A stretch of 64,000 nucleotides of DNA from Nitrospirota bacterium (GTDB taxonomy: Bacteria; Nitrospirota; JACRHL01), in NCBI GenBank assembly GCA_029881725.1, contig JAOUMB010000010.1, forward strand, positions 1,539-65,538, in the 5' to 3' direction. The translations under genes and the position numbers were made by a program. The notes beneath the pieces were generated by a model, which was not told the DNA's origin, searched no databases, and saw only the letters and a program-made list of their open reading frames with translations. Positions within the stretch are counted from its first letter, which is position 1. The number at the start of each line of letters is the position of its first letter. Positions 22,525 through 47,659 of this stretch are shown piece after piece.

Positions 22525-25500
22525 TTACGGCTCCGCAACCACGAACCGCGCCGGAACCCCAGCCCCGTACGTCTCCGGGGCATACATTTCCTCCACGATC
22601 GGCGCGTTGGCCGAGAACGTTCCGGTGGCGATGGCCTGCGCCACATAGGCCATTTCGTAGGTGCCGGGGCTGATGAAGTCGGCGAACCAGCGCACCGCCT
22701 CCAGCCCCATCTCCCGGTGGTAGAACCCGCCGGAACGGTAGGCGCCGTACCACAGGTCGTCCTCGTTCCAGGAATAGCCGCCGGAACTGTTGTCGCCCTC
22801 GCCCAGTTGGGCCAGCGCTTTACTGGCGGAGGCCAGGGCGGTGTTGATCGGCTCCAGCCCGGCGGCCAGCGGGTCGCTCAGGGCCACGAACAGGCGCTCG
22901 GCGGGGATGCCCACCTTCAGGCTCACGCGCACGATCTCGCCCCGTTTGATCTCGCCGCCGTCCGCCAGGGGCTGCCAGGCGCCGTTCCGGTGCACGGCAT
23001 ATTCCCGCGCCACGGTCATTCCCGCGTTCACCGGGTCCCCCGGCACGTCCTGATAGGCGAAGCGGATGCGCGCCGTGTAATAGGCGCGCCCGGTGCCCTT
23101 GCGGGTCAGTTTAAGTTCCGTCTGGCGGCCCGGATCGTCCGCCGCGAACGGATAGGAGAAGGTGCGCGGGTTGGCGTCGAAGCCCTTGAAGGTTTCGCTG
23201 CCGATGTCGTGCCCGCCCAGGGAGCCGGACACGGTGAAGTCCGGCGTGTCCTTTTCGTAGATCCGGGCATAGTCCACCAGCGCGTTGGTGCAGTAGAGGT
23301 TCTCCTGGGTGTTGTTCCAGCGCCCGGCCTTGCGGCTTTCGGTGATGAAACGGGTGAGCGGCGTGGTCTGCTGTTCCGATCCGGCAACCTGGGTGAACGC
23401 GGTGAGCAACAGGCAATTGGTGCGGGTGGTGGTGTGCAGGATGCGCCCCCAGCCGTCGTCGTTGGTCTCCTGGAACTGCACCTTGCCGGAGGTGATCTCC
23501 ATGTGCGAGCGGATCTCCCCGGCCAGCGACTCGGCCATGCCGCCGGTGTTCTGGGCCAGGTTCAGCCCCATCCACAAAAAGCCCTTTCCAAACAGGCTGA
23601 GCAGTTCCCGGTCGCCATACAGGTTGCTCATGGCGGAGCCGGTGTTGCGGCCGTTGCGCAGCAATGTGTAGCCGATCATGGCGCGCACGCTGGCCCTGGA
23701 GCGCTTGCTGTAATACCAGGGCCAGGCGGAGTCGTTGCGCAGCAGGTTGTCCAGATAGCCGTGCAGCCGGGTTTTCACATCGGCGGGCACCGGATAGCGG
23801 GCCTCCTCCAGCCACAGCATGCCCAGCCCGGTATAGGCGGACAGGTACGGATCGGCCAGTTCGTCGCGCGGGCTCCAGTAGGCAAAGCCGCCGCTCGGGG
23901 TCTGGAAGCGCGCCGCATCGCTCATGGTCTGGGCAATGAGGCCGCTGGCGGCCTGCTTCGCCACCTTCACCTCGGGGTCCAGGTAGCCATCCAGCGCCAC
24001 CGCGTTTCGGTACATGAGCGCCTTGGTCAGGCGCTGTTCCCAGCACAGGTACGGATACTCGAATACGTAGCGGAACACGTCGTTCAGGTGCGAAAGCACG
24101 GAGCTGGACACCAGCAGTTCGATGCCGCCCACGTCGGTGCGGATGCCGGGTGGAATCTGCACCCCTTCGGTGACCCCGTCGGTGGTGGTGGAGCCATAGG
24201 TGGCGAATACCGCCGGGGTGGCGAACGGCACCACCTTGAACGGCAGGCGCATGCCGTCGAACAGTTCACCGGAGCGGGCACGAATTTCCACCTTGCCCGC
24301 CCCGGCGTGGGACGGGGCGGTCAGCGGGAACTGCACGATGCCCTTGCCCCCGGCGGGCACGGTCACCGGCTGCTCGCCCGGCCCGGCCAGCTTGAGCGGA
24401 CCGGGGGTGAGCGAGACGTCCACGTCCAGCGGCCCCTCCACCCGGTTGTGCACCACAAAACGGGCGTCGAAGGCATCCCCCTCGGTGGCGAAATTGGGCA
24501 GCGCCGATTCCAGCATCAGCTTCTGGTTGACCTTGAAACTGCCGTCGGTGCCGGTGCCAAAGCGGTGCTTAGTATCCACCGCCACCGCGATGATGCGCCA
24601 GGTGGTCAGGTTATCGGGCGCGGTAAAGGTGAACTGGGCCTTGCCGTCCGCCCCGGTGCGCAGGGCCGGTTCCCAGTAGGCCACGGCCTTGAACAACTCG
24701 CGCAGACGCTCCTCGCCCGCGCCGCCACCGCCGCCGGGATCGGCCCCCTTCTTGCCGTAATGGCGGCGGCCGATCAGGTGGATCAGGGTTTCACTGGTGG
24801 TCACGTCCAGCGGCGGAAGCTCGTAAAAATAGTCGTGCACCTCGTACTTGGCCGCATAGTCCCCGGCCAGTTGCAGCACCGCCTCGTCCACCACCGCCAC
24901 CATCACCTCGGCATCCACGGCCCTGCCCCCGGGACCGGCAACGGACACGTACCCGGTCACCGTGGCCCCCGGCTCCACCTCGGCGCTGGCGGTGCCGGAA
25001 GTGACCGCCAGACGGGTGGACGGATCGCTTACCGGCACACGGATCATGCCCATCTTGAAGGACGGCTTGCCCAGATCGACGCCATCCTCGATTTTTTCGG
25101 AGGTGCGCCCGGACAGCAGCACCACGGACAGGTAAAAACCGGGCACCAGGGCGTCCCGGTCGATGGGGAATTCCAGCACCTGGGCGCCGCCGGTAAGGGT
25201 GCGTTCCTCCCGGTGCAGAATGCCGTGCCGCTCCAGCGAAATCAGCGCCCGCGCCTCCTCATAGGGCGATTTGACCAGCACCCGCAGGGTGTCGCCCTTC
25301 ACATACTCCTTCTTCTCCGGAATCAGGTCGATGCGGTCGTTGTCCTGACGCCACCAGCCGATGTATTCCGGTCCGGTCACATAGCGGCCGATGGTGGTGG
25401 TCACCGGCCGGCCCCTGCCGTCGCGGGCCTCCGCCTGCACCATGTAATACCCGGCGGAATTGGGCGCAAGCGGGCAGCTTTGCGCCTGCCTGGCGGTGGT

Positions 25501-28410: not shown

Positions 28411-28531
28411 CGTTCCCTCTCCCAGGCAGGGGATAATCGAACCCCGGCGGGCCATCCATGGCCATGCCGGTCGGTCCACTGTTCCAGAAGATTTACATTT
28501 TGGCAACCCGGCGGGCGGGCGCAGAGGCTGT

Positions 28532-28843
28532 CTAAGCGGCGGAAAGATGGATGGAAGTGGCGGCGCAGTAGTCACATTGCATCACCAGATGCCGCTGGTG
28601 GGATTCCGTCTCGCAGTGCATGACGCCGCTCAACTGGCCACTGCCACACACCCGGCACGGTTGCTCCTGTCCGCTGTGGTCGTGGGCGCGGGAAACGGTC
28701 ACTTCCGCCTGACAGGCGGTACAGGCCGCCCGGTAGCTATCCCCCCCACTCATGCAGGTGGAATGCAGTTCCAACTCCCCGGCGCCGCAGCAGGGGCAAC
28801 TGGTGGCCGCCAGCATGATGCGGGCACTGGCCTGATGATTCAT
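28532..28843 (-). CDS. Small Cys-rich protein (putative zinc-ribbon).
   Basis: About 103 aa from ATG MNHQASARIML with a GGAGGA RBS. Cys pairs CPCCG...C..C, CRVCG, CDYC. Sits between the beta-barrel gene and the A2M gene. Confidence 0.45.
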   Translation of the reverse strand: MNHQASARIMLAATSCPCCGAGELELHSTCMSGGDSYRAACTACQAEVTVSRAHDHSGQEQPCRVCGSGQLSGVMHCETESHQRHLVMQCDYCAATSIHLSAA

Positions 28844-29035
28844 GGCGATATCCTCCGTTACACACCGTGCAATCCAGCCCGAAATGGATTCAAAATCCGC
28901 GCCATTTCCCATTTATCGGATAAAACGAAATATTCCAATGGGTTCGCTGCACACGGAATGCGGATATCGGCGAATTACGTGCATTTACGTATCCGTGTTC
29001 CGCACACTTTTGTACAACCCCCCCTGGAAGCCGGG

Positions 29036-31849
29036 TCAGAAGTCGATGCGGTAGCCCAGGGCGATGAACCAGGTTTCGGTCTTTTCGGTGGCACCGGCGA
29101 TCTTGCGGGAACTCCACGCCTGTCCCCCTTCCAGTTCGAAGCGCATGTTGCGCCCCGCCCGCCAGTCCAGACGCAACTCCGGACGCCACACGGTCTCCTC
29201 GGCGTTGTTGCGCAGGTCGTCCCGCAGGTCCAGCCGCAGGCGCGGGTTGAAGCGCCAGTTGGGGCCCGCCTGAAAACGGCTGTTGGCGGTGAAGGTAAGG
29301 GTGCGGGTAAAGTCGGTATCCGCCAGGCGCGCCCCGAGGATGGTGATGTCACCCTCCTGAAGCAGGCCGCTGGTGATGAACTGAAGGTTGTAGAAATAAT
29401 CCGGGCCGCTCTCCGGCATGCCGGGAATATCCTTAATCGGCGCTCCGGGAAGGGTGGGGTCCCCGATGGTACCCGGCGTGGCGCTCAGCTTGGTGGCGGT
29501 GATGTCGGCACTGATCTGGGTTTTCTTGGACAACGGCTTGGTGCCCCCCAGGGTGAGGGAGCGGGACAGCGGAGTGTGGTCCAGGGCGGCCTGACGAACC
29601 TGATCCTCGGTCAGCAGGGTCAGCAGTTGCTCAATGGTCGTGATCGGCGTCAGGGTGGCGGTATCCACCATCCCCTGCAATGCATTGGTGGTGGTCAGCA
29701 CCGGGCTCTTGCGGTAATCCAGCACCAGGTTCAGGGTGGTCTCGCTCTTGAAGCGCCAGTTCCCCACGAACATGATGGTGTTGTATTCCTGATAGGAACG
29801 GTCGTAATCCACCAGCGTGAAGAACGACCGGCGCTCCGAGAAGAAGCGCAGTTCGCCACCCACCGCATCGCGGTCGGAGATACCGTCCACAGTCTGTTCG
29901 ATCTTGAACAAGTTCATGTCCAGGTGATTGAACAGGGTGCCGATGTCCACGCTGACGCCGTTGAATTCGCGGCGGCGGTTGATGGTGTTGCCGGTGGAAA
30001 TCTCCACCGGATAGCCCCGCACCAGGTTGACCTTCAACCGCCCGCCCAGGTTCTGGCGCAACAGGGTGCCGTCAAAGCGCCCCAGCACACCGGAGGTGCT
30101 CAGGGTCTGCCGCCCCACACGCAGGTTGGTGCGGGTGGGCTGGAACTGGGCATCCACATAGGCGGCGGTGAGGCGTCCCTCGCTGTTGGACTGGTTGGCA
30201 AAGTCGCGCCGGTAGCCGGTGGTGATCCGGGAACGGAAATCCAGCCGGTCGCTACGGCGCCGCCAGGTGAGATCCAGATCGGTATTGAGAAGCGAAAGGT
30301 CGGTACTCACCACGCCGGTGGGGTCCGTGGTCACATCACGCCGGTAATACTGGGACAGACCGCCGAAAAAGTCCTTGTGCACCTGCCCCTGGGCGCGCGT
30401 CACCTTGCGCAGTTCCTGGCGCTGCCCCGGCCCGGCGGCGGTAATGATGCCCGCCAGACGCTGGCGCACACGGGCCGCCGCGTCGCCGTCGGGATAGCGC
30501 TCCAGAAAATCGGTATAGATCTGCTTGGCGTGGGCGAACTGCCCCTTGCGCTCGCGGGCCAGCCCCAGATACTCCAGGGCATCCTGCTGATAGGGATGAT
30601 CCGCGAAACGCAGCACTTTGGTGTACAGGCGCACGGCGGTGTCGTAATCGGAGTCCACCATGGCCCGACGGGCGTCGTCCATCAGCTTCTTGAGCAGGGC
30701 TTCGTCCCCCTTGGGCGCATCGGCCACGGCCACCGGTGCCACGGTGCGCGGCGTGACCGCATGGGCCGAAGCAGCCACCCGCTCGGCCTCGGAAACCTCG
30801 GTCACCCAGGCGCCCGGGAAGGCCGTGGCCACCCGCTGCTGAATGCGCAGCGCATCCGGTTTTTCGGCAAAGAAACCGAGACGCAACTGGTAGCGGGTGC
30901 GGTTTCCGGACCGGGTTTTGTGCACATAGAGCAGATAGCGGGCGAACTCCGGCAGATCGGGCAGTCCCGCGGCGGTGATCGGCTTGCTGTCCTGCCGCAA
31001 CTGAATGGCGAAGTTGCCCTTCGGCAACGGCACCGACGGCGCCACATTGGCCGCCGGAGCCGGTTGCGGATCCGCGGCGGGAGCCGGTTTGGGCGTGGCA
31101 GTCGGAGCCGGTTTGGGGGTGGCGGCCCGGGCCACGGTGCGCGGCTCCGGCTTGACCACCGAGCGACGGGAGGAACGGCGCTCCTTTTTGGTCACTTCCG
31201 TCACCCAGGCACCGGGAAAATCCCGGGAAAGGGCGCGCTGAACCGGGGCAGCCTCCGCCGAACTGTCGAAAAATCCGACCCGCAACTGATAGTAGGTGGT
31301 GTCGCCCCGAACCTGCTCCTCCACATACAGCCGGTGCTGCTTGAACTCCAGCCGGTCGGGCAGGTGAGCCGGATCGGGCGCGCGGGTACCGCGCCACAAC
31401 TGCACCGCGAAAATGCCATCTCCCTTTGGCTCCGGCTTGGCGTCACGGGTCCGGGTCGCCCGTCCACGCGGCTCGATGGCGCCGGCGGCGGAGTCCTTGC
31501 GCTCCTGCATCCCCACCCGGGTGATCCACGCGTCCGCGTATTCCGACAGCAGCGTCCGGCGCACCTTTTCGGCGCTCTCCATATCCGGAAAAAACCCCAG
31601 CCGCAAGCGGTACCAGGTGGTGCCGCCCTTGGTGAAGGAGGTCTGATACAGGCGGTAGTCGCGAAATGCATCCAGAGCCGGCAACGCCTTCGGATCCACC
31701 GGTTTCTTCTCCAGGGAAATCTGGATCACGTAGCCGTTGTTCAGATTCACCTTGGGCGCGGCCTGCGCGTTCGCGGCAAAGGAAAACAGCGCCGCGCAGG
31801 CGCAGAGCAGCGTCAGCAGCAGGCGGTATGGAAATGAGGTGGCGGGCAT
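29036..31849 (-). CDS. Outer-membrane beta-barrel protein with three N-terminal SPOR-like repeats and a TPR-like segment.
   Basis: Signal peptide MPATSFPYRLLLTLLCACAALFSFAANAQA. Three repeats of roughly 75 aa ending ...YRLRLGFFPDMESAEKVRRTL..AWITRV / YQLRVGFFDSSAEAAPVQRAL..AWVTEV / YQLRLGFFAEKPDALRIQQRV..AWVTEV (SPOR-like). TPR-like segment YTKVLRFADHPYQQDALEYLGLARERKGQFAHAKQIYTDFLERYPDGD. The last roughly 480 aa alternate amphipathic strands and end ...IALGYRIDF (OMP C-terminal Phe). An alternative TTG start lies at 31873. Confidence 0.8.
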   Translation of the reverse strand: MPATSFPYRLLLTLLCACAALFSFAANAQAAPKVNLNNGYVIQISLEKKPVDPKALPALDAFRDYRLYQTSFTKGGTTWYRLRLGFFPDMESAEKVRRTLLSEYADAWITRVGMQERKDSAAGAIEPRGRATRTRDAKPEPKGDGIFAVQLWRGTRAPDPAHLPDRLEFKQHRLYVEEQVRGDTTYYQLRVGFFDSSAEAAPVQRALSRDFPGAWVTEVTKKERRSSRRSVVKPEPRTVARAATPKPAPTATPKPAPAADPQPAPAANVAPSVPLPKGNFAIQLRQDSKPITAAGLPDLPEFARYLLYVHKTRSGNRTRYQLRLGFFAEKPDALRIQQRVATAFPGAWVTEVSEAERVAASAHAVTPRTVAPVAVADAPKGDEALLKKLMDDARRAMVDSDYDTAVRLYTKVLRFADHPYQQDALEYLGLARERKGQFAHAKQIYTDFLERYPDGDAAARVRQRLAGIITAAGPGQRQELRKVTRAQGQVHKDFFGGLSQYYRRDVTTDPTGVVSTDLSLLNTDLDLTWRRRSDRLDFRSRITTGYRRDFANQSNSEGRLTAAYVDAQFQPTRTNLRVGRQTLSTSGVLGRFDGTLLRQNLGGRLKVNLVRGYPVEISTGNTINRRREFNGVSVDIGTLFNHLDMNLFKIEQTVDGISDRDAVGGELRFFSERRSFFTLVDYDRSYQEYNTIMFVGNWRFKSETTLNLVLDYRKSPVLTTTNALQGMVDTATLTPITTIEQLLTLLTEDQVRQAALDHTPLSRSLTLGGTKPLSKKTQISADITATKLSATPGTIGDPTLPGAPIKDIPGMPESGPDYFYNLQFITSGLLQEGDITILGARLADTDFTRTLTFTANSRFQAGPNWRFNPRLRLDLRDDLRNNAEETVWRPELRLDWRAGRNMRFELEGGQAWSSRKIAGATEKTETWFIALGYRIDF

Positions 31850-31899: not shown

Positions 31900-32550
31900 T
31901 TACAGAACGGTGGATGGATCCGGCGCCGGGTCCGGAGTTGGGTCCGGAAATTCGGGCAGTATCTCCCCGGGCGCTTCCCCGGGCGCTTCCCCGGGCGCTT
32001 CCCCGGGCGCTTCCCCGGGCGCTTCCCCGGGCGCTTCCTGGGGCGCGTTTTGGGGCACTTCCTGCGGCTCCGGCTGCGGTGCCGGGAGGACGATCTCGAT
32101 GCTGCGATAATCCTTGCCCTGGCGCACGTCGAACGGCACCGCCTGATCAAAGCGCAGAATCAGATACGGGATGCCGCGCTGCTGCCCGCTCGGCTCGTCC
32201 CCTTCGGGGCCCGCGTCCCCTTCATACAGGATGCTCAGGCGCGGCAGGCCGGGCCGTTCCGGAAGCACCGCCGCCTCGCGCCCGAACAGGATGTCGTCCT
32301 CTGGGAACTGTCCGTCCGGCAGGCGGCGCACCCGCACCACCACTTCCCTGGCCGGGTCATGGGGAAAGTGGTCCACGTACTGGGCGATAAAGCGGAACTC
32401 CACGCGCACCACCAGCCCTTCGGCGGTGGTATCGATGGACACGTCCTCCATCACCCCCTGACGCACCGGCTGTGCCGCCACCGGGGCCGCAAGGCCCAGG
32501 CAGATTCCCAGCACGGCCGCCGCCAGTACGGCACCCGCATGCAAACGCAT
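31900..32550 (-). CDS. Secreted hypothetical protein with a C-terminal (EAPG)n repeat.
   Basis: Signal peptide MRLHAGAVLAAAVLGICLGLAAPVAAQP. Strong RBS GGGGAGGGG. C-terminal PQEAPGEAPGEAPGEAPGEAPGEAPGEIL. Confidence 0.6.
   Translation of the reverse strand: MRLHAGAVLAAAVLGICLGLAAPVAAQPVRQGVMEDVSIDTTAEGLVVRVEFRFIAQYVDHFPHDPAREVVVRVRRLPDGQFPEDDILFGREAAVLPERPGLPRLSILYEGDAGPEGDEPSGQQRGIPYLILRFDQAVPFDVRQGKDYRSIEIVLPAPQPEPQEVPQNAPQEAPGEAPGEAPGEAPGEAPGEAPGEILPEFPDPTPDPAPDPSTVL
31965..32036. repeat. 12-bp tandem repeat (ccccgggcgctt)x6 encoding (EAPG)n.
   Basis: Perfect 12-nt periodicity: gggcgcttccccgggcgcttccccgggcgcttcccc.... Confidence 0.85.
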
Positions 32551-32572: not shown

Positions 32573-34348
32573 TTAAAAGGCGCTGTCGGACACGCGGTGT
32601 TGGCGTGAACGGCTGTCCAGAATGGTGGTCATGCTCGAATTCGTATACACGTGGCACGACCCCGAGCAATCCCTCAACTCCGAAACGGTGTAGTTCACAC
32701 CGGGATACTTTTCATGCGGCCCGGAGCGGTAATTCCCGGAGTGGCACCCGGCGCAATCCGGCTGATAGGCCGGGGCCCGCCAGGTGACGGTTTCGCTGTT
32801 GGAACCGTGGCAGCGGGTGCAGGCCAGCGCCAACCGGTGGTCGCCCGGATAGTTCGGGGACTGGTGGCGGAAGGTGTCCGGAATCCAGGCGGTGGTGGTA
32901 TGGCAGTAGTCGCACGAGCGGCCGGTCTGGAAGTGGGTGCTGGTCTTGCCGGTGGCGTTGGTGCCGTTGTGGCAGGAGTTGCAGGTGCCGGGCGAAACGT
33001 TGGCGTGATCGAACCGGGCCGGCAGCCAGGCCACGGTGGAGTGGCAACTGTCACAACTGGCGGTGGTCTGCACGTGGGTAGCCGTCTTGCCGGTGGCGGT
33101 AATGCCGTTGTGGCAGGTGGAACACGTGCCGGGGGCCACCGCGCTGTGATCAAAAGAGGCCGGGATCCACGCGTTGGTGGTGTGGCAGTTGTCGCAGGTG
33201 TTGTCGCTGGCCACGTGGGTGGCATGTTTGCCGATGGCGGTGGTGCCGTTGTGGCAGTTGAAACAGGTGCCGATCACTTCCAGGTGGTCCACCCGCAGGG
33301 CCGGGATGAACGACACCGTGCTGTGGCAGGCTTCACACAGGCTGGATGTCTGGATGTGGGTGGCGTTCTTGCCGATGGCGGTGGTGCCATTGTGGCAGCT
33401 GAAACAGCCGCCGGTCACCTGGGCGTGGCTGAACACCGCGTTGGCCCAGGCGGCGGTGGTGTGGCAGTCGCCGCAGAGGTTGCTGCTCGGGATGTGGGTG
33501 GCACTCTTGCCGGTGGCAATGAGGCCGTTGTGGCAGGTGGAACATTCCCCGAGCACATCCGCGTGGTCCACGCGGGTAACGGTGGCAAAGCTGGTGGTGT
33601 TGTGGCAGCTTTCGCAGAAATTGGTGGTCAGCGGGTGCGCTGCGTGCTTGCCGGTGGCGGTGGTGCCGTTGTGGCAGGTGGAACAACTGCCGGTCACGCC
33701 GGTATGGTCGAAGCGCGCATTGAACCAGGTGGTCGGCGTATGGCAGTCCTCGCAGACGTTGCTGCTGGGAATGTGGGAAGCCGATTTACCGCTGGCGTCC
33801 ACGCCGTTGTGGCAGCGGAAGCAGTTGCCCACGATGCCGGTATGGTCGAAACGGATCATGCCCCAGGCGGTGGTGGTGTGGCAGTCGCTGCACGGGGCGC
33901 TGGTTTGCGGGTGGGTCGGGGTCTTGCCCGGGGCCACGGTGTTGTTGTGGCAACTGGCGCAACTGCCCAGCACGGAGGCGTGGTCCACCCGCGCCACCGG
34001 GTTCCAGCTGTTGGTGGTGTGGCAGTCGCCGCAAAAGTCGGTGCTCTGGATGTGGTTCTGCGGCTTGCGCGATCCGCTCACCCGCCCGGCGCGGGTGTGG
34101 CAGGCGGCGCACTGGGTGGGGGTGGTCTCGAAGATGCCGCGGATATGGCAGCTTTCACACTCCACCTGCTGGTGCGCGCCGGTCAGCGGAAAACCGCTCT
34201 TGAAGTGGTCGAACTGGGGGCGCCCGGACAGCTGGGCCGCGTCGGACATGGCCGGAATCAGCCAGGTGGCCAGCAGCGCTGCCGCCAGCAGGAGTACCCC
34301 CCACCAGCTCCCGAAGACCCCATCGGATGTGCTTTTATGATGCATCAT
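32573..34348 (-). CDS. Periplasmic multihaem c-type cytochrome with about 21 CXXCH plus 1 CXXXCH (paired/doubled CXXCH repeats).
   Basis: 591 aa with a signal peptide. Haem motifs counted: CESCH, CAACH, CGDCH, CASCH, CSDCH, CFRCH, CEDCH, CSTCH x3, CESCH, CGDCH, CFSCH, CEACH, CFNCH, CDNCH, CDSCH, CNSCH, CDYCH, CTRCH, CAGCH, CSGSCH. Repeating module C..CHT..W....FDH..V.G.C..CHNG.TA.GK..H. RBS GAGGT. Confidence 0.9.
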   Translation of the reverse strand: MMHHKSTSDGVFGSWWGVLLLAAALLATWLIPAMSDAAQLSGRPQFDHFKSGFPLTGAHQQVECESCHIRGIFETTPTQCAACHTRAGRVSGSRKPQNHIQSTDFCGDCHTTNSWNPVARVDHASVLGSCASCHNNTVAPGKTPTHPQTSAPCSDCHTTTAWGMIRFDHTGIVGNCFRCHNGVDASGKSASHIPSSNVCEDCHTPTTWFNARFDHTGVTGSCSTCHNGTTATGKHAAHPLTTNFCESCHNTTSFATVTRVDHADVLGECSTCHNGLIATGKSATHIPSSNLCGDCHTTAAWANAVFSHAQVTGGCFSCHNGTTAIGKNATHIQTSSLCEACHSTVSFIPALRVDHLEVIGTCFNCHNGTTAIGKHATHVASDNTCDNCHTTNAWIPASFDHSAVAPGTCSTCHNGITATGKTATHVQTTASCDSCHSTVAWLPARFDHANVSPGTCNSCHNGTNATGKTSTHFQTGRSCDYCHTTTAWIPDTFRHQSPNYPGDHRLALACTRCHGSNSETVTWRAPAYQPDCAGCHSGNYRSGPHEKYPGVNYTVSELRDCSGSCHVYTNSSMTTILDSRSRQHRVSDSAF

Positions 34349-34393: not shown

Positions 34394-35983
34394 TCACCGT
34401 TCAATGGTGATATCGGAAAACGACTCGGTGGTGTGGCACCGGCCGCAGTCTCTTCCAAACTGTTCGCTGTGGACATCGTCCTGCAGGTGACAGGCACCGC
34501 AGGTGTTGGGCTGTTTGACACCCTTTTTTGAGGGCGTTTTGTGGCACGCGAGGCAGTCCAACCCCTCGTGCTTGCCGTCCAGCTTGAACTCGGTCTGCCG
34601 GTTGTGGTCAAAGGACCACAGGGGCCACCCGTTGGGGTTGTGGCAGGTGCCGCACAGGCTTCCCAGCCGCCGTTTGTGCTCGTCCTGCTTCTTGTGGCAG
34701 GCATAGCACTCCCCTTCGGTTTTCACGTAGCGCCGGTCCAGGTGGCACTCCTCGCACGGGGTGACCGCGTGCTGGCCGATGAGCGGAAACGGCGTCAGGT
34801 CGTGGTCAAAGCGCACCTGATCCCGCCATCCGGTTTCCCGGTGGCACTGGGCACAGTTTTCGCCCTGGCGCCCGTCGTGCACGTCGTCCCCCTTGTGGCA
34901 GGCATAGCAGTCGGTCTTGAGCTCCTCCTTGTACAGCACCCCCTTGTGACAGGACCGGCAACGGGCCTTTTCGTGGGCGCCCTTCAGGCGGAAATCGGTG
35001 TCCTTGTCGTGGTCGAAGATCACCCGGTCCCACGCCCTGGGCGTGTGGCAGGAGTCGCATTTCTCCCCGTAGCGCCCCTTGTGCTCGTCGTCGTTCTTGT
35101 GGCAACTGTGGCAATCGGTCTTGAGTTCGTCCTTGTACAGGTCGCCGGTATGGCACGCTTTGCAGGTGACCTCCTTGTGGCTGCCCTTCAAGGGAAAATC
35201 GGTGTCCTTGTCGTGGTCAAACCGCACCCGGTCCCACTTGTCCGGGGTGTGGCAATCCTCGCACTTGTCGCCGTTGGCGCCCCGATGCACGTCGTTGATC
35301 TTGTGGCAGGCGACGCAGGTGTCGGGCACCCCCTTGTACTTCTCTCCCGGGTGACACATGGCGCAGGCCACGTCCATATGGGAGTCCCTGAGGGGGAAGT
35401 CGGTCTTGTCGTGGTCGAAGGCGGTTTTCTTCCAGCCGGCGGTGGAGTGGCAGTCCTCGCACTTTTCCCCCAGCCGCCCGTCGTGGGCATCGTCTTCCTT
35501 GTGGCAGGCAAGACAGGTGGCGGGGGCATCGCGGAACTTCTTGTCCGGCTTGTGGCAGCCGTCACAACGCACGCGCTGATGGCGTCCCTTCAGGCGGTAA
35601 TCGGTCTGGTTGTGATCGAAGGTTTCGCGGTTCAGGCCCACGACATCGGCACTCCGGCCCACGTGATCGGTGTGGCAGACCTGACACTCCTGATTCGCCA
35701 CCTGGGGGGAACGGCCGTGAAACCCGCGTTTTTTACCCACGTCGGACGCCACATCCTTGTGGCAGTCCAGGCACAGGTTGTTCTGCACCCCCTTGCTGAA
35801 CCGTTTGTGGCAGTTGGTGCAGGTGTCCTCGTACTTGGCGTGCCCGGAAATCAACTCGCCGGGCATTACCAGCCGCTCAAGCGGACCGGCGAGGGCGCTA
35901 TGGGGAAACGTCAGCACAGCCATGATAAAAAGCGCCAGCGCCGCTACCAGGGCGCGCCGGACGAAAAAATGCCGGTGCGGCAT
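34394..35983 (-). CDS. Periplasmic multihaem c-type cytochrome with about 21 CXXCH (polymer of c7/c3-like trihaem units).
   Basis: Signal peptide MPHRHFFVRRALVAALALFIMAVLTFPHSALA. 21 CXXCH motifs, from CTNCH through CGRCH. Repeating module C..CH..D.H.G..G..C..CH......W....FDH..T.F.L.G.H....C..CH. Its ATG overlaps the stop of the upstream gene (TGATG). Confidence 0.9.
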   Translation of the reverse strand: MPHRHFFVRRALVAALALFIMAVLTFPHSALAGPLERLVMPGELISGHAKYEDTCTNCHKRFSKGVQNNLCLDCHKDVASDVGKKRGFHGRSPQVANQECQVCHTDHVGRSADVVGLNRETFDHNQTDYRLKGRHQRVRCDGCHKPDKKFRDAPATCLACHKEDDAHDGRLGEKCEDCHSTAGWKKTAFDHDKTDFPLRDSHMDVACAMCHPGEKYKGVPDTCVACHKINDVHRGANGDKCEDCHTPDKWDRVRFDHDKDTDFPLKGSHKEVTCKACHTGDLYKDELKTDCHSCHKNDDEHKGRYGEKCDSCHTPRAWDRVIFDHDKDTDFRLKGAHEKARCRSCHKGVLYKEELKTDCYACHKGDDVHDGRQGENCAQCHRETGWRDQVRFDHDLTPFPLIGQHAVTPCEECHLDRRYVKTEGECYACHKKQDEHKRRLGSLCGTCHNPNGWPLWSFDHNRQTEFKLDGKHEGLDCLACHKTPSKKGVKQPNTCGACHLQDDVHSEQFGRDCGRCHTTESFSDITIER

Positions 35984-38145
35984 CAGTACATGTGTACCGC
36001 GAGCACGTGGATCAGCGCCGTAAACACCATCATCAGGAACAGGGGAAAGTGCAACAGGTGCCACAGGCCAAAAATCCGTTCGTAAAAGCCGAACTCCGCC
36101 ACCGAATGCACGGAGCGGTAGTATTCCTTAAAATGCTTGCGCAACGCCTTGCGATGGCGCGACAACGTCTTGCGGTCCCACCCGTCCTGCTCGGCGCGCT
36201 GCTTCAGGGCCACCCGCGCCACGCGCCGGATGCGCAGCCGGGTCCAGATGGTCCGAGGGCGCACGGTGAGCAGCCGCCAGGTGCGGCCAATCACCCCGGT
36301 GGGGGCGTTCAGCCACTTTTCCAGCCGCAGCAACCGCTCATTCATCTCTTCGGGAAATTCGATGTCCCCCTCCAGTGTACCGTGCGCGGATTTCAAACCC
36401 ATGCGCATTTCGGCGGCGGTGGCGCGGCGCCCATACAGGCCGTGATGGATCTTGGTGTACATGAATCGCCCGAACAGGCCGCTGAAGGCCACCACCAGCA
36501 TGGTGAACAGGGCGATCTGGCTGTTCAGGGAACCCAGGGCGAAATTGGAATGGAATACCACCAGCAGCGGCCCCACCACCCCCATGATCATGTGGGTCTG
36601 GAACCAGTACTTGACCGGTCCCATGCGGCGCATGAAATTCATTTTCTTGCGCATGGGGTAGAGCAGCAACAAGGCCATCATCACCGCCCCGGCAATGCCC
36701 AGGTAGTAACCGGTACCGGTTTCGGCGGACAGGTAGCCGGTCTCGCGCTGGGTCCATCCATACAGGGTGGCGCCGAACACGGCAAACATGAACAGCCCCC
36801 ACCCCAGACCGGAGGAAGCATCCGGAACGGCGGGGTCGTTGGCCGGGCGCGGTTCGGGAACCGGAATCGGACTGGCCTTGGCGGCCGGAACCGCAGCGGC
36901 CTTCTTGGCCTTCGGCGCACCATCCTGGCCACCCCCACCGGAACGGCCGGACGGCACGTGCGGGCGGCCGGGGCCACCGGACTTGCGCGCCGGGGTCGAG
37001 GCACATTGCTGGACCTGCGGGGCCGGGTCCGCCGCCGGAGCCGACACGGGCACCACCTGGCTGGCGGCTTCCTTGGAACGCACTGCGGACACCGTCGCGG
37101 CCACCTGAGCGGCCAGGGAGTCCTGGGGTGCAACCTGAGGCACGGCAGCGGGTGTCACCTGCGGCGCGGGCGTGGAAATTTTGGGAATGGCCACCCTGGG
37201 AGTGGCCTGGGGCGCCGGGGCGGGCACGGTCTGGGCGGCGGGCTTCACCGTCACCACCGCAGCCGCACGGGCAGCGGGAAGTTCACCCGGATTGCGGGCC
37301 GCATCGATAATCGCCTTTAACGCAGCCGCGTTGCGGTCCGGCGCCTCCGCCGGGGTACGGGCAGCCGCCACCAGTTTACGGACTGCGGCTTCACGCCCGG
37401 CCTCCTGAGTGGACTGGGGGGTGGCCGCCTTCGAGATCGCGGCGGTCGATGTCGGTTTCGGAACGGCCATCTTGGGGGCAGCGGCCTGCGGGGCAGCCAT
37501 CTTGGGGGCAGCCGCCTGCGGAGCAGCCATCTTGGGGGCAGCGGCCTGCGGAGCAGTCATCTTGGGGGCAGCCACATTATCGCCCAGCGTCATTGCCACC
37601 AGGCGGGCCATTGCCTCGCGCCGGATCGCCTGACGCGCGGCGGTTGATTGGGTATCTTCTATGGCGGTATCCGCCGGGGCCTGGGCAGCGGTTTGTGCCT
37701 GCACCGCGTCCATGATGCGTTCGGCTTCATCTCCAAACGCCACCGACAGCAGCATGGCCAGTTGCTCGCGGGTGGAGCGGGAACGTTGCGGCAACGGAGG
37801 CGCCGGCTGAGGCGCGGCGCCGGAACCAATCGGACCCTGAATGTGGCCGCCAGGCGGCGGCCCGATCAAGCCCGACGGGGTTCCCGAACCGCTCCCAACC
37901 CGACGCGCGATTTCCGAAGCGTGCTCGCCAAAGGCCAGTGACAGAAGGGATTCCAGCTCCGCACCGGATACCGGCTCCCCTTTCAACGGACGCGATTCCA
38001 CATCCAGACCAAAGAAATCGCCCTTCATCGGACCGGCATCGTCCAGGCTGCCCCAGCCTCCCGGGTGAACCCGGGAACCGGTGCGGTCAGACGACGGATC
38101 AAAGGATTCCAGTGCGTCCATATCCATGCCGGAAAAATCTTCCAT
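35983..38145 (-). CDS. Membrane protein with a roughly 440-aa Ala/Pro-rich low-complexity N-terminal region and a C-terminal 5-TM domain carrying two bis-His helices (ferric-reductase/cytochrome-b-like).
   Basis: 720 aa. Strong RBS GGGAGGTG plus ATG MEDFSGMDMDAL. In-frame (KMAAPQAAAP)n repeat. TM helices: GWGLFMFAVFGATLYGW; YYLGIAGAVMMALLLLYP; YWFQTHMIMGVVGPLLVVFHSNF (two His 14 residues apart); IALFTMLVVAFSGLFGRFMY; WHLLHFPLFLMMVFTALIHVLAVHMY (two His 14 residues apart). Confidence 0.65.
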   Translation of the reverse strand: MEDFSGMDMDALESFDPSSDRTGSRVHPGGWGSLDDAGPMKGDFFGLDVESRPLKGEPVSGAELESLLSLAFGEHASEIARRVGSGSGTPSGLIGPPPGGHIQGPIGSGAAPQPAPPLPQRSRSTREQLAMLLSVAFGDEAERIMDAVQAQTAAQAPADTAIEDTQSTAARQAIRREAMARLVAMTLGDNVAAPKMTAPQAAAPKMAAPQAAAPKMAAPQAAAPKMAVPKPTSTAAISKAATPQSTQEAGREAAVRKLVAAARTPAEAPDRNAAALKAIIDAARNPGELPAARAAAVVTVKPAAQTVPAPAPQATPRVAIPKISTPAPQVTPAAVPQVAPQDSLAAQVAATVSAVRSKEAASQVVPVSAPAADPAPQVQQCASTPARKSGGPGRPHVPSGRSGGGGQDGAPKAKKAAAVPAAKASPIPVPEPRPANDPAVPDASSGLGWGLFMFAVFGATLYGWTQRETGYLSAETGTGYYLGIAGAVMMALLLLYPMRKKMNFMRRMGPVKYWFQTHMIMGVVGPLLVVFHSNFALGSLNSQIALFTMLVVAFSGLFGRFMYTKIHHGLYGRRATAAEMRMGLKSAHGTLEGDIEFPEEMNERLLRLEKWLNAPTGVIGRTWRLLTVRPRTIWTRLRIRRVARVALKQRAEQDGWDRKTLSRHRKALRKHFKEYYRSVHSVAEFGFYERIFGLWHLLHFPLFLMMVFTALIHVLAVHMY
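37440..37575. repeat. 30-bp tandem repeat, about 3.5 copies, inside the membrane-protein gene.
   Basis: Unit catcttgggggcagc(g/c)gcctgcgg(g/a)gcag(c/t). Copies start near 37468, 37498, 37528 and 37558. Encodes KMAAPQAAAP repeats on the minus strand. Confidence 0.75.
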
Positions 38146-38571: not shown

Positions 38572-39921
38572 TTGGAAAAACTGCCGATTGGTCCGGAAAT
38601 TCTGGGCAAGCTGCCCTTCGACCCGGAATTGCTGATCTATATCGTCCCGCTGGTGGTGATCTTTCTTTTTTATGCAGGTCGCCGCTCCAGCGCCCACAAA
38701 AAAAGCAGCCGGGTCCTGCGCGAAAACCTGGAGGCGGGCCTCACCGAACCCGCATCGTTGCATCCGCTCATCGACGAGTCTCGTTGCATCGGTTGCGCCT
38801 CATGCGTCACCGCCTGCCCGGAGAGCAAATACGAGGTGCTGGGCATCGTGCACGGCAAGGCGGAACTGATCAACCCCACCGCCTGCATCGGCCACGGCGC
38901 CTGCAAGACCGCCTGCCCGGTGGATGCCATCACCCTGGTGTTCGGTACTGAAAAACGCGGGCTGGACATCCCCAACGTCAAACCCAACTTCGAAACCAAC
39001 ATCCCCGGACTGTTCATTGCGGGGGAACTGGGTGGCATGGGCCTCATCGGCAATGCCGTGGAGCAGGGCCGCCAGGCCATGGACAACATTGCCAAACTGT
39101 CCGGCATGGGCAAGGGCGACGGGTACGACGTGGTGATCGTGGGGGCCGGACCATCGGGCTTTTCCGCCACCCTGGGCGCCATGGAAAAGAAGCTGCGCTA
39201 CCTGACCGTGGAGCAGGATTCCCTGGGCGGCACCGTATACAACTTTCCACGCGGCAAACTGGTCATGACCCGGCCGGTGGACCTGCCCATCGTGGGCAAG
39301 GTCAGGTTCACGGAAACCACCAAGGAAAAATTGCTCGAGTTCTGGACCGACGTGGAAAAAAAGACGGGGGTCAAAATCAGTTACAAGGAACGGGTGGACG
39401 ACATCACCCCCTCCGGCAAGGGGTTCGTGGTCAAAACCAGCAAGGGCACGTACAAGACCCGTGCGGTGCTGCTGGCCATTGGCCGCCGGGGCACCCCGCG
39501 CAAGCTTGATGTGCCGGGCGAGGAAACTCCCAAGGTCACCTACCGGCTGATCGACCCGGAGCAGTACACGGGCCAGCATGTGCTGGTGGTGGGCGGCGGC
39601 GACAGTGCCCTGGAGGCCGCCACCAGCATCGCCGATCAGGCCGGTACCACGGTAACCCTGTCCTATCGCAGCGACGCCTTCGGGCGCGCCAAGGGCAAGA
39701 ACCGGGAGCGGGTGGACGCCGCCGTGGCAGCCGGGCGCCTGAATGTGATGCTCAAAAGCACGGTCAAGGAAATCACCCCGGACAAGGTGGTGATCGACCA
39801 CGACGGCACCCTGCACACGCTCAGCAACGACGCCATCATCGTGTGCGCCGGCGGCATCCTGCCCACCGGATTCCTGAAACAGATCGGCATTCAGGTGGAC
39901 ACCAAATATGGCACCGCCTGA
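38572..39921 (+). CDS. Membrane-anchored 2x[4Fe-4S] ferredoxin-domain FAD/NAD(P)-binding oxidoreductase (thioredoxin-reductase-like fold).
   Basis: TTG start preceded by GAGGAG. N-terminal TM helix LLIYIVPLVVIFLFYAG. CIGCASCVTACP and CIGHGACKTACP (two CxxCxxCxxxCP clusters). Dinucleotide motifs DVVIVGAGPSGFSA and HVLVVGGGDSALEAA. Confidence 0.8.
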   Translation: MEKLPIGPEILGKLPFDPELLIYIVPLVVIFLFYAGRRSSAHKKSSRVLRENLEAGLTEPASLHPLIDESRCIGCASCVTACPESKYEVLGIVHGKAELINPTACIGHGACKTACPVDAITLVFGTEKRGLDIPNVKPNFETNIPGLFIAGELGGMGLIGNAVEQGRQAMDNIAKLSGMGKGDGYDVVIVGAGPSGFSATLGAMEKKLRYLTVEQDSLGGTVYNFPRGKLVMTRPVDLPIVGKVRFTETTKEKLLEFWTDVEKKTGVKISYKERVDDITPSGKGFVVKTSKGTYKTRAVLLAIGRRGTPRKLDVPGEETPKVTYRLIDPEQYTGQHVLVVGGGDSALEAATSIADQAGTTVTLSYRSDAFGRAKGKNRERVDAAVAAGRLNVMLKSTVKEITPDKVVIDHDGTLHTLSNDAIIVCAGGILPTGFLKQIGIQVDTKYGTA

Positions 39922-41944
39922 CGCCGCACCCCCTTCCCGGCGCTGGTGGCCCGTCGCCGTCCTTTTGCTGCTGATGCTGCCCCTGTCCCTGCCCGCCCCG
40001 GCGCTGGCGGACCCCATGGATGACGTGAAGGCCGCCGTGCGCCTGCGCGACTATCCACGTGCCATCCGGCTGCTGACCCCCATTGCGGAAAAGGGCGATG
40101 CCGAGGCCCAGTACCAGCTCGGCTCCCTGTACCGCTCCGGACGCGCCGGGGACAATCCGAAGGCCGCGTTCCGCTGGCTGCTGGCCGCCGCCCAGCAGGG
40201 GCACGCCAAGGCGCAGTATTCGGTCGGCACCCTCTATGAAACGGGCACGGGGGTGGAGCAGAGCGCCGACCGTGCCCTGGTGTGGTATCAGAAGGCTTCC
40301 GCCCAGGGACACGACGGGGCCCAGACCCGCGCCGAAGCCCTCCAGGGTACCCTCGGAAGTAAAAAGGACCGTCCCAGCCGTCAGGAATTGACCGCGGCCC
40401 TTCTGGCCGCCGCCGAGAGCGGGGATGACCGCGAAGTGCGCAGGCTCCTGAAACAGGGGGGCGACGCCAACGCCACCGACGCCGCCGGGCACTCCGCGCT
40501 GATGAACGCCGCCGCCCAGGGGCATCTCAAGGTGGTGCGGATTCTGCTCAAGGCGGGCGCCAAGCCCAACCTGGCGGACAAATACGGGGATACCGCCGTC
40601 ACCCTGGCCGCCCGCCACGGGCGTCCGCGCACCCTGGTCGCCCTGCTGGACGCCGGGGGCGATGTCAACGCCACCGACGGCAACGGCAACACCCCCCTGA
40701 TCCTGGCGGCGCTGCACGATCACGCCAAGACCACCGAGTTGCTGATCAAGGCCCGCGCCCGGCTCAATACCCGGAACAAGAACGGAGAAACCGCCCTCGA
40801 CGTGGCCGTGCGCAAGGAGCACCGCAAGCTGGTCGCCCAGTTGGAAGCGGCGGGTGCCACCCGCACCGCACAGGCGGCGGAACCCGCCATACCTCAGTCC
40901 GTGGAGGCGCTGGAGGCGTTGCAGGCCGGCGGCGACGACGCCCTTTACGCGGGGTGGTCCACCCTGGCGGTGGCCGCCTGGCGTGGTCAGGCGGAGGCCA
41001 TGAAAAAGCTGCTGGCCCAGGGCGCCAGGGTGGACGCCCGCGACCCGGAGGGGCACACCCCTCTGAGCCGCGCCGCGTGGCAGGGCCACCTGGAAGCGGT
41101 CAACCTGTTGCTGGCCCGCAAGGCCAACCCCAATGCCTACCAGAAAGACGGCCGGAGCCCCATCCTGTGGGCAGCGGAAAACGGTCACACCGAGGTGGTG
41201 ACCGCCCTGCTCAAGGCCGGTGCCCGCGCTGGAGAGCGGCAGGGCAAGGATGGCGACAGCGCCTTGATGCTGGCGGTGCAGAAGGGCAGCGCCGAAACCG
41301 TGGAGGTGCTGCTGAAGGCCGGAGCCGATCCCAACATGGCCCTGCCCGACGGCGAAACCGCGCTGCTGCGCGCCGCCGCCCGCGGCAGCCTGGGAATCGT
41401 CCGCCAATTGCTGGCTGCGGGGGCCCAGGTGAATCATCGGGACCAGGATGGCCGTACCGCCCTCTGGTTCGCCGCCAATGCCGGCGCGGTCAAGACCTGC
41501 GGCGTGCTGCTGGGCGCCAGGGCCAATGTGGCCTACGTGGATGCCTCCGGTCACACGGCCCTGTCGCGGGCCGCCCTCGGTGGACACTCCGGGGTAATCG
41601 CCGCGCTGCTGAAACAGGGAGCCCAGCCCGACACACGCACCCGGGAGGGAAACACACCCCTGTTGCTGGCCGCCTCCGAAGGGCACCTGGAGACGATCCA
41701 GCGCCTGCTGGAAGCAGGCGCCAAGGTGAACACCCAGAACGAGGCCGGAGACACCGCCCTGATCCGCGCCGTCATCGGTCGCCATCCGCGCGTGGTAGGC
41801 TTGTTGCTCAATCAGGGGGCCGATCCGAAGATTCGCAACAAGAAGCGGCAAACCGCCCGCTCGCTGGCAGAGGAATCCGGGGACGAAAACCTGATCCGCG
41901 TGTTCGAAAAGCCGGAAGGCAAAAACCTGCTCGACCTGTTTTGA
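39908..41944 (+). CDS. Secreted protein with N-terminal Sel1-like repeats and about 14 ankyrin repeats.
   Basis: Signal peptide MAPPDAAPPSRRWWPVAVLLLLMLPLSLPAPALA. Sel1 units AQYQLGSLYRSGRAGDNPKAAFRWLLAAAQQGHAKAQYSVGTLYETGTG.... ANK consensus repeated, for example DAAGHSALMNAAAQGHLKVVRILLKAGAKPN, DGNGNTPLILAALHDHAKTTELLIKARARLN. The ATG overlaps the upstream stop by 14 bp. Confidence 0.85.
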   Translation: MAPPDAAPPSRRWWPVAVLLLLMLPLSLPAPALADPMDDVKAAVRLRDYPRAIRLLTPIAEKGDAEAQYQLGSLYRSGRAGDNPKAAFRWLLAAAQQGHAKAQYSVGTLYETGTGVEQSADRALVWYQKASAQGHDGAQTRAEALQGTLGSKKDRPSRQELTAALLAAAESGDDREVRRLLKQGGDANATDAAGHSALMNAAAQGHLKVVRILLKAGAKPNLADKYGDTAVTLAARHGRPRTLVALLDAGGDVNATDGNGNTPLILAALHDHAKTTELLIKARARLNTRNKNGETALDVAVRKEHRKLVAQLEAAGATRTAQAAEPAIPQSVEALEALQAGGDDALYAGWSTLAVAAWRGQAEAMKKLLAQGARVDARDPEGHTPLSRAAWQGHLEAVNLLLARKANPNAYQKDGRSPILWAAENGHTEVVTALLKAGARAGERQGKDGDSALMLAVQKGSAETVEVLLKAGADPNMALPDGETALLRAAARGSLGIVRQLLAAGAQVNHRDQDGRTALWFAANAGAVKTCGVLLGARANVAYVDASGHTALSRAALGGHSGVIAALLKQGAQPDTRTREGNTPLLLAASEGHLETIQRLLEAGAKVNTQNEAGDTALIRAVIGRHPRVVGLLLNQGADPKIRNKKRQTARSLAEESGDENLIRVFEKPEGKNLLDLF

Positions 41945-47498: not shown

Positions 47499-47659
47499 CT
47501 CAAATTCTCCCCGCATCAGGTCGATCTTGCGGGTGGCCGGGCACAGGTTCAGATTCCCGGTGTTCTCTGCTTTTGAATCTTGTTTCATACTCAGTCCAAC
47601 CCTTGGTCACACAAAAAAGAGGGGGTGGGGGTGGCCGAAGCCACCCCCACCCGTTGGGG

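Follow-up and report, generated by a model that had tools for sequence, protein, structure and literature searches.

A three-SPOR outer-membrane barrel as predicted subunit of a PCC3-type porin-cytochrome conduit in a Nitrospirota bacterium

One gene in the 64,000-nucleotide stretch of Nitrospirota DNA analyzed here (the window) encodes, in a single polypeptide, three SPOR domains, a TPR module, and a large β-barrel. A sequence-only reading of this gene had proposed either a cytochrome sheath, like MtrB/PioB, or a polymer exporter, like BcsC/PgaA. The open reading frame lies on the minus strand (29036..31849), starts at an ATG at 31849, ends with a stop codon at 29036-29038, and encodes 937 aa. 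Public assemblies carry an identical protein, named 'SPOR domain-containing protein [Nitrospirota bacterium]'. The frame is also open at a TTG located eight codons 5' of the ATG. The order of the modules is a signal peptide, three SPOR domains, the TPR module, and a C-terminal barrel of 22 strands, and all of these modules downstream of the signal peptide were found in an AF2 model of the protein (mean pLDDT 86.9). The signal peptide, also seen by the earlier reading, consists of a helix (aa 6-25) followed by AANA-QA.

The Pfam SPOR profile (PF05036) matched the protein in three stretches with 65.7 bits, for a cut-off of 21 (E 4.9e-18), in agreement with the three repeats read from the sequence, for which a scan with this profile had been suggested. 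A family-specific SPOR HMM, with E-values of the order of 1e-26 to 1e-31, placed the domains at aa 40-117 (31499..31732, E 4.7e-31), aa 147-224 (31178..31411, E 3.6e-26), and aa 280-357 (30779..31012, E 1.9e-27), all on the minus strand, and the family profile matched the SPOR domain of DamX (2lfv, E 4.1e-5). The β-α-β-β-α-β fold occurs three times in the AF2 model. By eye, all three copies contain a Gln in strand β1 (VIQ, AVQ, and AIQ, respectively) and an R-L/V-G-F-F strand, and each copy ends with ...LGFF...AW(I/V)T(R/E)V, as previously described. The three copies are 35-45% identical to each other, and the triplication is therefore an old one. The number of SPOR copies ranges from 0 to 4 among the relatives, with one as the norm, and the single copy of most relatives aligns with the third domain of the target. 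The triplication had been called unusual, which is true of three copies (approximately 2% of the family), but the presence of at least one SPOR domain is common. The ligand of SPOR domains is glycan strands stripped of peptides, and the three domains of the target are thus predicted, from their identity, to bind denuded peptidoglycan.

The segment read as TPR corresponds to a CpoB/YbgF-like module of five helices (aa 383-472; 30434..30703, minus strand). It is densely conserved within the family, occurs in 251 of the 254 members examined, and forms with the barrel the near-invariant core of the family. The barrel itself (aa 491-937; 29039..30379, minus strand) was modeled by AF2 with high confidence as 22 β-strands, and its C-terminus, ...LGYRIDF, is a typical outer-membrane protein signal with a final Phe. 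The prediction of a barrel ending in Phe was therefore accurate, although its length is 447 aa and not roughly 480 aa. A Foldseek search of the PDB with the target returned only generic barrels, with a TM-score of at most 0.26 (normalized to the full-length query), and the top matches were substrate-specific porins of the OprD/Occ type.

The barrel gene stands at the end of a compact operon, in which gaps do not exceed 50 nt and one start codon overlaps a stop codon, and a scan for terminators and promoters 3' of it found none. The order of the operon is an inner-membrane protein, a 21-haem cytochrome, a Thr/Ser-rich cytochrome, a small AMIN-like protein, and the barrel. The inner-membrane protein (35983..36885, minus strand) is conserved, comprises approximately 300 aa, and forms the C-terminal part of the ORF 35983-38145; its start is uncertain. 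In the numbering of this ORF, it contains WFQTH..(13)..H at aa 514, SGLFG at aa 555, and WHLLH..(13)..H at aa 695, and its orthologues were detected by tblastn in 47 loci. Its stop codon overlaps the ATG (35983) of the Asp/Lys-rich 21-haem cytochrome in the sequence TGATG. This cytochrome (34394..35983, minus strand), also recognized by Pfam, contains 21 CXXCH motifs in approximately 530 aa, i.e., approximately 25 aa per haem, and its orthologues in related loci are 42-69% identical. The following gene (32573..34348, minus strand) encodes a cytochrome of 591 aa rich in Thr, Ser, Ala, and Gly (13.0%, 10.1%, 9.6%, and 7.8%, respectively), with 21 CXXCH motifs and one CX3CH motif, and matches to Pfam Cytochrome_C7, Paired_CXXCH, and MtrC/MtrF domain II/IV. 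It has a Sec signal only, and no lipobox or secretion signal for reaching the cell exterior was found.

Between the cytochrome genes and the barrel gene, and 50 nt from the latter on the same strand, a small gene (31900..32550, minus strand) encodes a secreted protein of 216 aa composed of an AMIN-like β-sandwich (aa 34-156) and a Pro-rich (APGE)n tail. A Pfam search with the family of this protein gave no match, and its top structural matches were the AMIN domains, which bind peptidoglycan, of PilQ and AmiC. It is encoded by its own gene here, but in most relatives it forms the N-terminal part of the barrel protein. Two divergently transcribed genes on the plus strand are also conserved neighbors of the cluster: a 4Fe-4S and FAD/NAD(P) oxidoreductase with an N-terminal transmembrane helix (38572..39921; Pfam Fer4 and Pyr_redox_3), present in 39 related loci with 53-79% identity, and a secreted Sel1/ankyrin-repeat protein of 678 aa with a signal peptide (39908..41944; Pfam Ank and Sel1), present in 30 related loci. 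A functional link to the pair of genes encoding an alpha-2-macroglobulin (22525-28575) and PBP1C (20065-22416), located downstream of the barrel gene, was rejected since the genes 3' of the barrel gene were different in all the related loci examined.

These components match the PCC3 gene cluster, a predicted porin-cytochrome conduit defined by an inner-membrane protein of approximately 300 aa that contains SGXXG and bears two WX3HX13H motifs on its transmembrane helices, a periplasmic cytochrome with few residues per haem and approximately 21 (21/24/27) CXXCH motifs, and a second, low-complexity cytochrome rich in Thr, Ser, Ala, and Gly with many haems (He et al. 2017, Front Microbiol 8:1584). 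Published examples include Slit_0867-0870 and Slit_1446-1449 of Sideroxydans lithotrophicus ES-1 and the clusters of Leptothrix cholodnii SP-6, the Riftia endosymbiont, and Amphritea atlantica; the L. cholodnii porin has 22 strands, and the A. atlantica cluster has 21 + 63 haems (He et al. 2017). The window contains the 22-strand barrel, the 21-haem cytochrome, the T/S/A/G-rich cytochrome, and the motifs of the inner-membrane protein, in the gene order of Slit_1446-1449. The 21-haem and Thr/Ser-rich cytochromes would correspond, by sequence, to the 'periplasmic' and the 'extracellular' multihaem cytochromes of PCC3, respectively. We thus consider it probable that the product of the target gene is the outer-membrane subunit of a PCC3-type conduit, an assignment which relies on the components, their order, the haem counts, and the strand number, and which links the barrel to the published porins indirectly.

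The conservation of the locus is consistent with this assignment. The barrel forms its own large family, of approximately 1700 clusters at 50% identity, and relatives of the target occur in at least 470 species-level genomes. Hosts of relatives also include Methylococcaceae, Sedimenticola, and symbionts of the clam or tubeworm type. Upstream DNA of at least 5 kb was available for 51 related loci, of which 50 have a multihaem cytochrome directly 5' of the barrel gene and 43 have an ORF with exactly 21 CXXCH motifs. The Thr/Ser-rich cytochrome varies between loci from approximately 19 to 73 haems while the barrel remains constant, and an Amphritea locus encodes 21 + 63 haems upstream of the barrel homologue, the same numbers as published for PCC3 of A. 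atlantica. One family member devoid of SPOR domains belongs to the same kind of cluster. A co-occurrence search, proposed earlier as a means to choose between cytochromes and exopolysaccharide (EPS) synthases as partners, was thus in favor of the cytochromes, and no EPS synthase was linked in the window cluster or in the annotated related loci.

The present cluster also differs from the published PCC3. It belongs to a Nitrospirota MAG, its barrel protein has three SPOR domains, and its AMIN-like domain is encoded by a separate gene. The published descriptions of PCC3 that were consulted are of four genes and name neither SPOR nor TPR, nor an AMIN-like component, nor the pair of conserved divergent genes. 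A literature search found no paper on PCC3 in Nitrospirota, nor any on such cell-wall-binding modules in PCC3 barrels.

Of the two roles proposed by the sequence-only reading, the cytochrome one is supported. As with MtrB/MtoB/PioB, the sheath of the MtrCAB complex (PDB 6R2Q), the barrel gene lies beside genes for a periplasmic and an outer multihaem cytochrome, and the barrel has a presumed role as an insulating sheath. However, searches of NCBIfam and Pfam did not assign the protein to the MtrB/PioB family, and its barrel has 22 strands, whereas MtrB has 26 and lacks SPOR and TPR modules in the periplasm. The cytochromes of MtrCAB carry 10 haems, compared with 21 for each of those found here. 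With 22 strands, the barrel is narrower than the 26-strand MtrB, which counts against a sheath.

From the domain identities and synteny, the following path can be proposed. The inner-membrane protein, whose two WX3HX13H motifs are predicted b-haem sites, would exchange electrons with the 21-haem periplasmic cytochrome, which would extend to the outer membrane. The 22-strand barrel may sheath one or both cytochromes, so that the 21-haem cytochrome would contact the Thr/Ser-rich cytochrome on the far side, and the conduit would electrically join the cell to an extracellular redox partner, in either direction. The insertion of a cytochrome in the barrel, the partners of the TPR module, and the flow of electrons are all parts of this model. 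In S. lithotrophicus ES-1, both PCC3 clusters are down-regulated on Fe(II), which counts against such a conduit.

The N-terminal half of the target protein would remain in the periplasm. Its TPR module, densely conserved in nearly all members, is a likely docking site for a conserved partner, for which the 21-haem cytochrome, the AMIN-like protein, or both are the candidates. The barrel would be tethered to the peptidoglycan sacculus by the three SPOR domains and by the AMIN-like protein encoded in its own gene, and SPOR and TPR probably pin it to the cell wall. Because SPOR domains bind denuded glycan, such a tether may fix the position of a trans-envelope wire, possibly with a bias to septa or new poles. 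PilQ, with its AMIN modules, and FtsN, DamX, and RlpA, with their SPOR domains, are likewise envelope machines or proteins with modules that bind septal peptidoglycan, and the AMIN modules of PilQ direct its machine to the poles and to sites where the cell will divide (Carter et al. 2017, PMC5285504). In contrast to these secretin and division proteins, the protein described here is a cytochrome-linked, monomeric 22-strand barrel, and its binding to peptidoglycan is a prediction.

A broader proposal can be made, which we regard as tentative and rather doubtful as a whole. PCC3 would be a trans-envelope wire of at least seven genes anchored in the cell wall, in which the TPR, SPOR, and AMIN-like modules act as a stator that locks the conduit into peptidoglycan and could target it to septa or new poles, as AMIN does for PilQ. 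On the cytoplasmic side, the membrane-anchored 4Fe-4S/FAD oxidoreductase and the di-haem inner-membrane protein would function like a split ferric reductase of the NOX/FRE type, linking cytoplasmic NAD(P)H or ferredoxin, in either direction, to an extracellular partner and bypassing the quinone pool, and the Sel1/ankyrin protein would serve in assembly or act as a scaffold in the periplasm.

Among the other explanations, the one that survives best, although it is unlikely, is that the protein acts as a channel for export or assembly rather than as a static sheath. It would deliver the Thr/Ser-rich, repeat-built cytochrome to the cell surface and handle this cargo in the periplasm through its TPR module, by a mechanism like that of BcsC, PgaA, PelB, or AlgK/AlgE. 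The layout in the AF2 model, a periplasmic TPR module followed by a C-terminal barrel in one polypeptide, is shared with these TPR-porin exporters. Some export route is needed for a cytochrome with a Sec signal only and no lipobox, and the variation from about 19 to 73 haems beside a constant barrel would suit a linear cargo built of repeats. Known outer cytochromes exit via the type II secretion system, which argues against a dedicated channel, and holo-cytochromes c fold around covalent haem in the periplasm, so that a folded multihaem chain would be a bulky cargo. Moreover, the target has no sequence relation to BcsC, PgaA, or PelB, nor is there sequence homology with AlgK-AlgE; its CpoB-like TPR module is short (approximately 90 aa) where theirs is long, and its barrel has 22 strands, compared with 16-18 in the polymer exporters. 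Export of the cytochrome and the sheath model are compatible with each other.

It is quite improbable that the target serves the envelope in general, as a structural tether in the manner of OmpA/Pal or as a porin through which small solutes diffuse, and that its linkage to cytochromes is only regulatory or coincidental. In favor of this explanation, SPOR, AMIN-like, and CpoB-like TPR modules are all associated with the envelope or with division, and OprD/Occ porins head the Foldseek matches. However, synteny with the 21-haem cytochrome is near-universal over several phyla (50/51), at distances that suggest translational coupling, while the genes 3' of the barrel are not conserved. An importer resembling a TonB-dependent receptor, e.g., for a metal chelate, with the cytochromes as reductase of the cargo, is more improbable still: the identity of such receptors to the target (7-12%) reflects a shared number of strands only, the protein has neither a plug domain nor a TonB box and did not match TonB_dep_Rec in Pfam, SPOR and TPR occupy its N-terminus instead, and TonB/ExbBD genes are not linked. 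The exporter of exopolysaccharide of the BcsC/PgaA type, the second role suggested by the sequence-only reading, is the least credible of all and was abandoned, since it shares with the target only the TPR-plus-barrel layout, whereas neither Pfam nor NCBIfam matched any EPS-porin family (BcsC, PgaA, PelB, and AlgE included), the strand count is not 16-18, and no glycosyltransferase or synthase is present in the window cluster or in annotated related loci, where the conserved neighbors are cytochromes and redox proteins.

With regard to the PCC3 assignment, the result for the window is mostly an identification, in which an odd protein is explained by a known, uncharacterized system. PCC3 is among the most widespread predicted routes of extracellular electron exchange, and its hosts, iron oxidizers, chemosynthetic symbionts, and sediment Gammaproteobacteria, would here be joined by Nitrospirota and Thermodesulfobacteriota. 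The analysis adds several handles on this system, namely a 22-strand barrel of its own family, a CpoB-like TPR module that is nearly always present, and SPOR and AMIN-like domains that usually are, and three additional genes travel with the cluster. These handles allow peptidoglycan pull-downs, localization of the conduit, mapping of TPR partners, and a better PCC3 marker profile for metagenomes.

Finally, strands 13 and 14 of the barrel are separated by a conserved helical insert (approximately aa 715-760; 29570..29707, minus strand), which may, according to strand parity in the model, form an extracellular loop. AF2 placed helices at aa 720-724, 739-743, and 748-757 of this insert, its near-invariant motif is SPVLTTxNALQG, and the conserved columns of the region are P716, N722, A723, L724, G726, Q727, A755, D757, and R758.

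The gene for the 937-aa barrel protein was found on the minus strand, from an ATG at 31849 to a stop codon at 29036-29038, where the sequence-only reading had placed it, and the same product is present in public assemblies under the NCBI name 'SPOR domain-containing protein [Nitrospirota bacterium]'. It is encoded by the last (29036-31849) of five same-strand genes separated by very short spacers. The first encodes an inner-membrane protein (35983-38145), conserved over its last ~300 aa, with WX3HX13H motifs at aa 514 and 695 and SGLFG at aa 555. It is followed by the genes of an Asp/Lys-rich cytochrome with 21 CXXCH motifs (34394-35983), whose ATG overlaps the preceding stop codon (TGATG), of a Thr/Ser/Ala/Gly-rich cytochrome with 21 CXXCH motifs and one CX3CH motif (32573-34348), and of a 216-aa secreted protein without a Pfam match (31900-32550).

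This gene set matches that of PCC3, a porin-cytochrome cluster defined by comparative genomics (He et al. 2017, PMC5566968). Its four components are a porin predicted for the outer membrane, an inner-membrane protein of ~300 aa containing SGXXG and two WX3HX13H motifs, and two cytochromes, of which the 'periplasmic' one has a median of 21 haems and the 'extracellular' one carries many haems and is rich in Thr/Ser/Ala/Gly. The genes follow one another in the same order in the S. lithotrophicus ES-1 cluster, where Slit_1446 encodes the inner-membrane protein, Slit_1447 and Slit_1448 the periplasmic and the extracellular cytochrome, and Slit_1449 the porin. By gene set and gene order, the target probably belongs to the PCC3 porins. 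The Leptothrix cholodnii PCC3 porin was described with 22 transmembrane strands, the number modelled for the target, and the 21 and 63 haems counted at a related Amphritea locus (L063) are the exact figures published for Amphritea atlantica PCC3 (He et al., PMC5566968).

A single-sequence search returned 180 relatives of the target, from Nitrospirota, 'Leptospirillia', Binatia, and many Gammaproteobacteria (including a Solemya symbiont, Sedimenticola, and Woeseiaceae), and, when one genome per species was scanned, a relative turned up in at least 470 genomes, adding Thermodesulfobacteriota, Desulfuromonadales, Thiodiazotropha, Amphritea, and Methylococcaceae. Haem motifs were counted in all fetched loci. 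In 50 of the 51 loci whose upstream DNA reached 5 kb or more, a multihaem cytochrome gene preceded the barrel gene on the same strand and ended no more than 3.5 kb before it; 43 of the 51 contained an ORF with exactly 21 CXXCH motifs. The second cytochrome was highly variable across loci (~19-73 haems when intact). When the window proteins were used as tblastn queries, the inner-membrane protein was detected in 47 related loci and the small upstream protein in 48. No EPS synthase was seen linked to the barrel gene in any neighbourhood examined. The sequence-only reading had hesitated between a cytochrome sheath and a polymer exporter, and had proposed to weigh them by co-occurrence with cytochromes or EPS synthases; that comparison comes out for cytochromes, to which the linkage is near-universal.

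The only member with 10 kb of upstream DNA yet without a nearby multihaem cytochrome gene was a 971-aa ORF, which also spans an AMIN-like match, in Gammaproteobacteria bin397 (locus L053, CP070738.1, 9362-12277). Either the synteny has an exception here or the cluster has been relocated.

The predicted architecture of the target was confirmed in every element. Three stretches matched Pfam SPOR (PF05036), with 65.7 bits where the gathering score is 21, and a family-iterated SPOR HMM located the repeats at aa 40-117, 147-224, and 280-357 (E 1e-26 to 1e-31). The AlphaFold2 model, computed with 62 homologues as input, was confident (mean pLDDT 86.9) and showed a signal-peptide helix, three beta-alpha-beta-beta-alpha-beta SPOR folds with disordered Pro/Ala linkers between them, a five-helix TPR-like module (aa 383-472), and, C-terminal to it, a barrel of 22 beta-strands (aa 491-936). 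The barrel is thus present, with a length of ~447 aa instead of the 480 first estimated; it has a conserved helical insert of ~45 aa between strands 13 and 14, and ends in LGYRIDF, a typical outer-membrane insertion signal. Against solved structures, the family profile matched only CpoB (E 1.6e-5) and DamX SPOR (E 4.1e-5), with no match for its barrel part, and neither Pfam nor NCBIfam holds a family for the target barrel.

At E ≤ 1e-3, a barrel-only profile (A3) matched the representatives of 1,709 clusters formed at 50% identity, and at E ≤ 1e-30 those of 1,144; the family is large and lacks a Pfam model. We classed 254 members with HMMs for the AMIN-like (A), SPOR (S), TPR (T), and barrel (B) modules. 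The main layout was A-S-T-B (131/254), followed by A-T-B (43), S-T-B (34), T-B (19), S-S-T-B (12), A-S-S-T-B (6), S-S-S-T-B, the class of the target (5), B only (2), S-S-S-S-T-B (1), and A-B (1). TPR plus barrel is therefore a near-invariant core (251/254), and SPOR is accessory, with 0-4 copies per member; a SPOR-less member (locus L089) lies in the same seven-gene neighbourhood. The SPOR triplication is indeed unusual, since three copies occur in ~2% of members, limited to close relatives of the target. Its copies are only 35-45% identical to one another in protein and 56-64% in DNA; the triplication is thus old, and neither recent expansion of a repeat nor misassembly accounts for it. Conservation is dense in the TPR segment (E426, R432, Q437, Y445, and R460-L465 are invariant), and a GVLGRFDG motif and SPVLTTxNALQG, at the start of the helical insert, are near-invariant in the barrel. 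This pattern suggests conserved protein-protein contacts.

Homologues of the small, AMIN-like upstream protein take two forms, either the product of a gene of their own immediately 5' of the barrel gene or an N-terminal domain of the barrel protein: tblastn found a match inside the Solemya-symbiont barrel gene, and in 30 homologues phmmer placed the protein at the N-terminus. Such fusion and fission argue well for joint action of the two proteins. AMIN and SPOR are both known septal-peptidoglycan-binding modules. In PilQ, the AMIN domains are reported to guide the pilus machine to sites of future division (PMC5285504). The small protein has a C-terminal tail (31915-32010, minus strand) that contains a tandem (APGE)n repeat followed by PDP repeats; this tail is predicted to be disordered and differs in length among homologues.

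By analogy with MtrAB(C), the barrel would let the 21-haem periplasmic cytochrome and the outer cytochrome make contact across the outer membrane. The TPR module may dock a conserved partner, and the SPOR domains and the AMIN-like protein may tether the complex to peptidoglycan. Doubts remain about such a conduit: a 22-strand barrel is narrower than MtrB, both PCC3 clusters of ES-1 go down on Fe(II), and PCC3 was described in 2025 as 'functionally unverified'. Much of the evidence would also fit the main rival explanation, in which the outer cytochrome is exported through the TPR-barrel. The likeness to MtrB/PioB concerns the proposed working of the protein, which is not a member of that family. 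TonB-dependent receptors have the same strand number, but the target has no plug. With BcsC/PgaA, it shares the TPR-then-barrel layout and nothing else.

Divergently from the cytochrome operon, the plus strand encodes a 4Fe-4S and FAD/NAD(P) oxidoreductase anchored by an N-terminal transmembrane helix (38572-39921) and a secreted 678-aa Sel1/ankyrin-repeat protein (39908-41944). Both adjoin the cluster across phyla (39 and 30 related loci, respectively, by tblastn with the window proteins) and could belong to the system too, for instance through a NOX-like cytochrome-b/flavoprotein pair. Provisionally, as journal coverage was partial, three points appear to be absent from the literature searched: the SPOR/TPR/AMIN-like make-up of PCC3 barrels, the three additional conserved genes, and the occurrence of PCC3 in Nitrospirota and in Thermodesulfobacteriota.

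The inner-membrane protein ORF has ~420 further codons 5' of its conserved part (36886-38145, minus strand), an Ala/Pro-rich stretch with PKMAAPQAAA-type repeats, partly shared only with a related Nitrospirota locus, L007 (41% identity over 177 aa). This stretch may extend the protein at its N-terminus, form a gene of its own, or be non-coding. Downstream of the target, on the minus strand, lie a small Cys-rich ORF with weak zinc-ribbon similarity (28532-28912; 126 aa, or 103 aa as called in public assemblies), a bacterial alpha-2-macroglobulin gene (22525-28575, 2016 aa), and a PBP1C-type penicillin-binding protein gene (20065-22416). We take the last two to be the known YfhM-PbpC pairing, a separate well-known unit. 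Genes 3' of the barrel gene differ in each annotated related locus, and the pair is thus apparently unrelated to the cytochrome cluster. A multicopper oxidase gene (46110-47588, minus strand) lies ~8 kb from the cluster; such enzymes have also been considered as possible metal oxidases of iron and manganese oxidisers.
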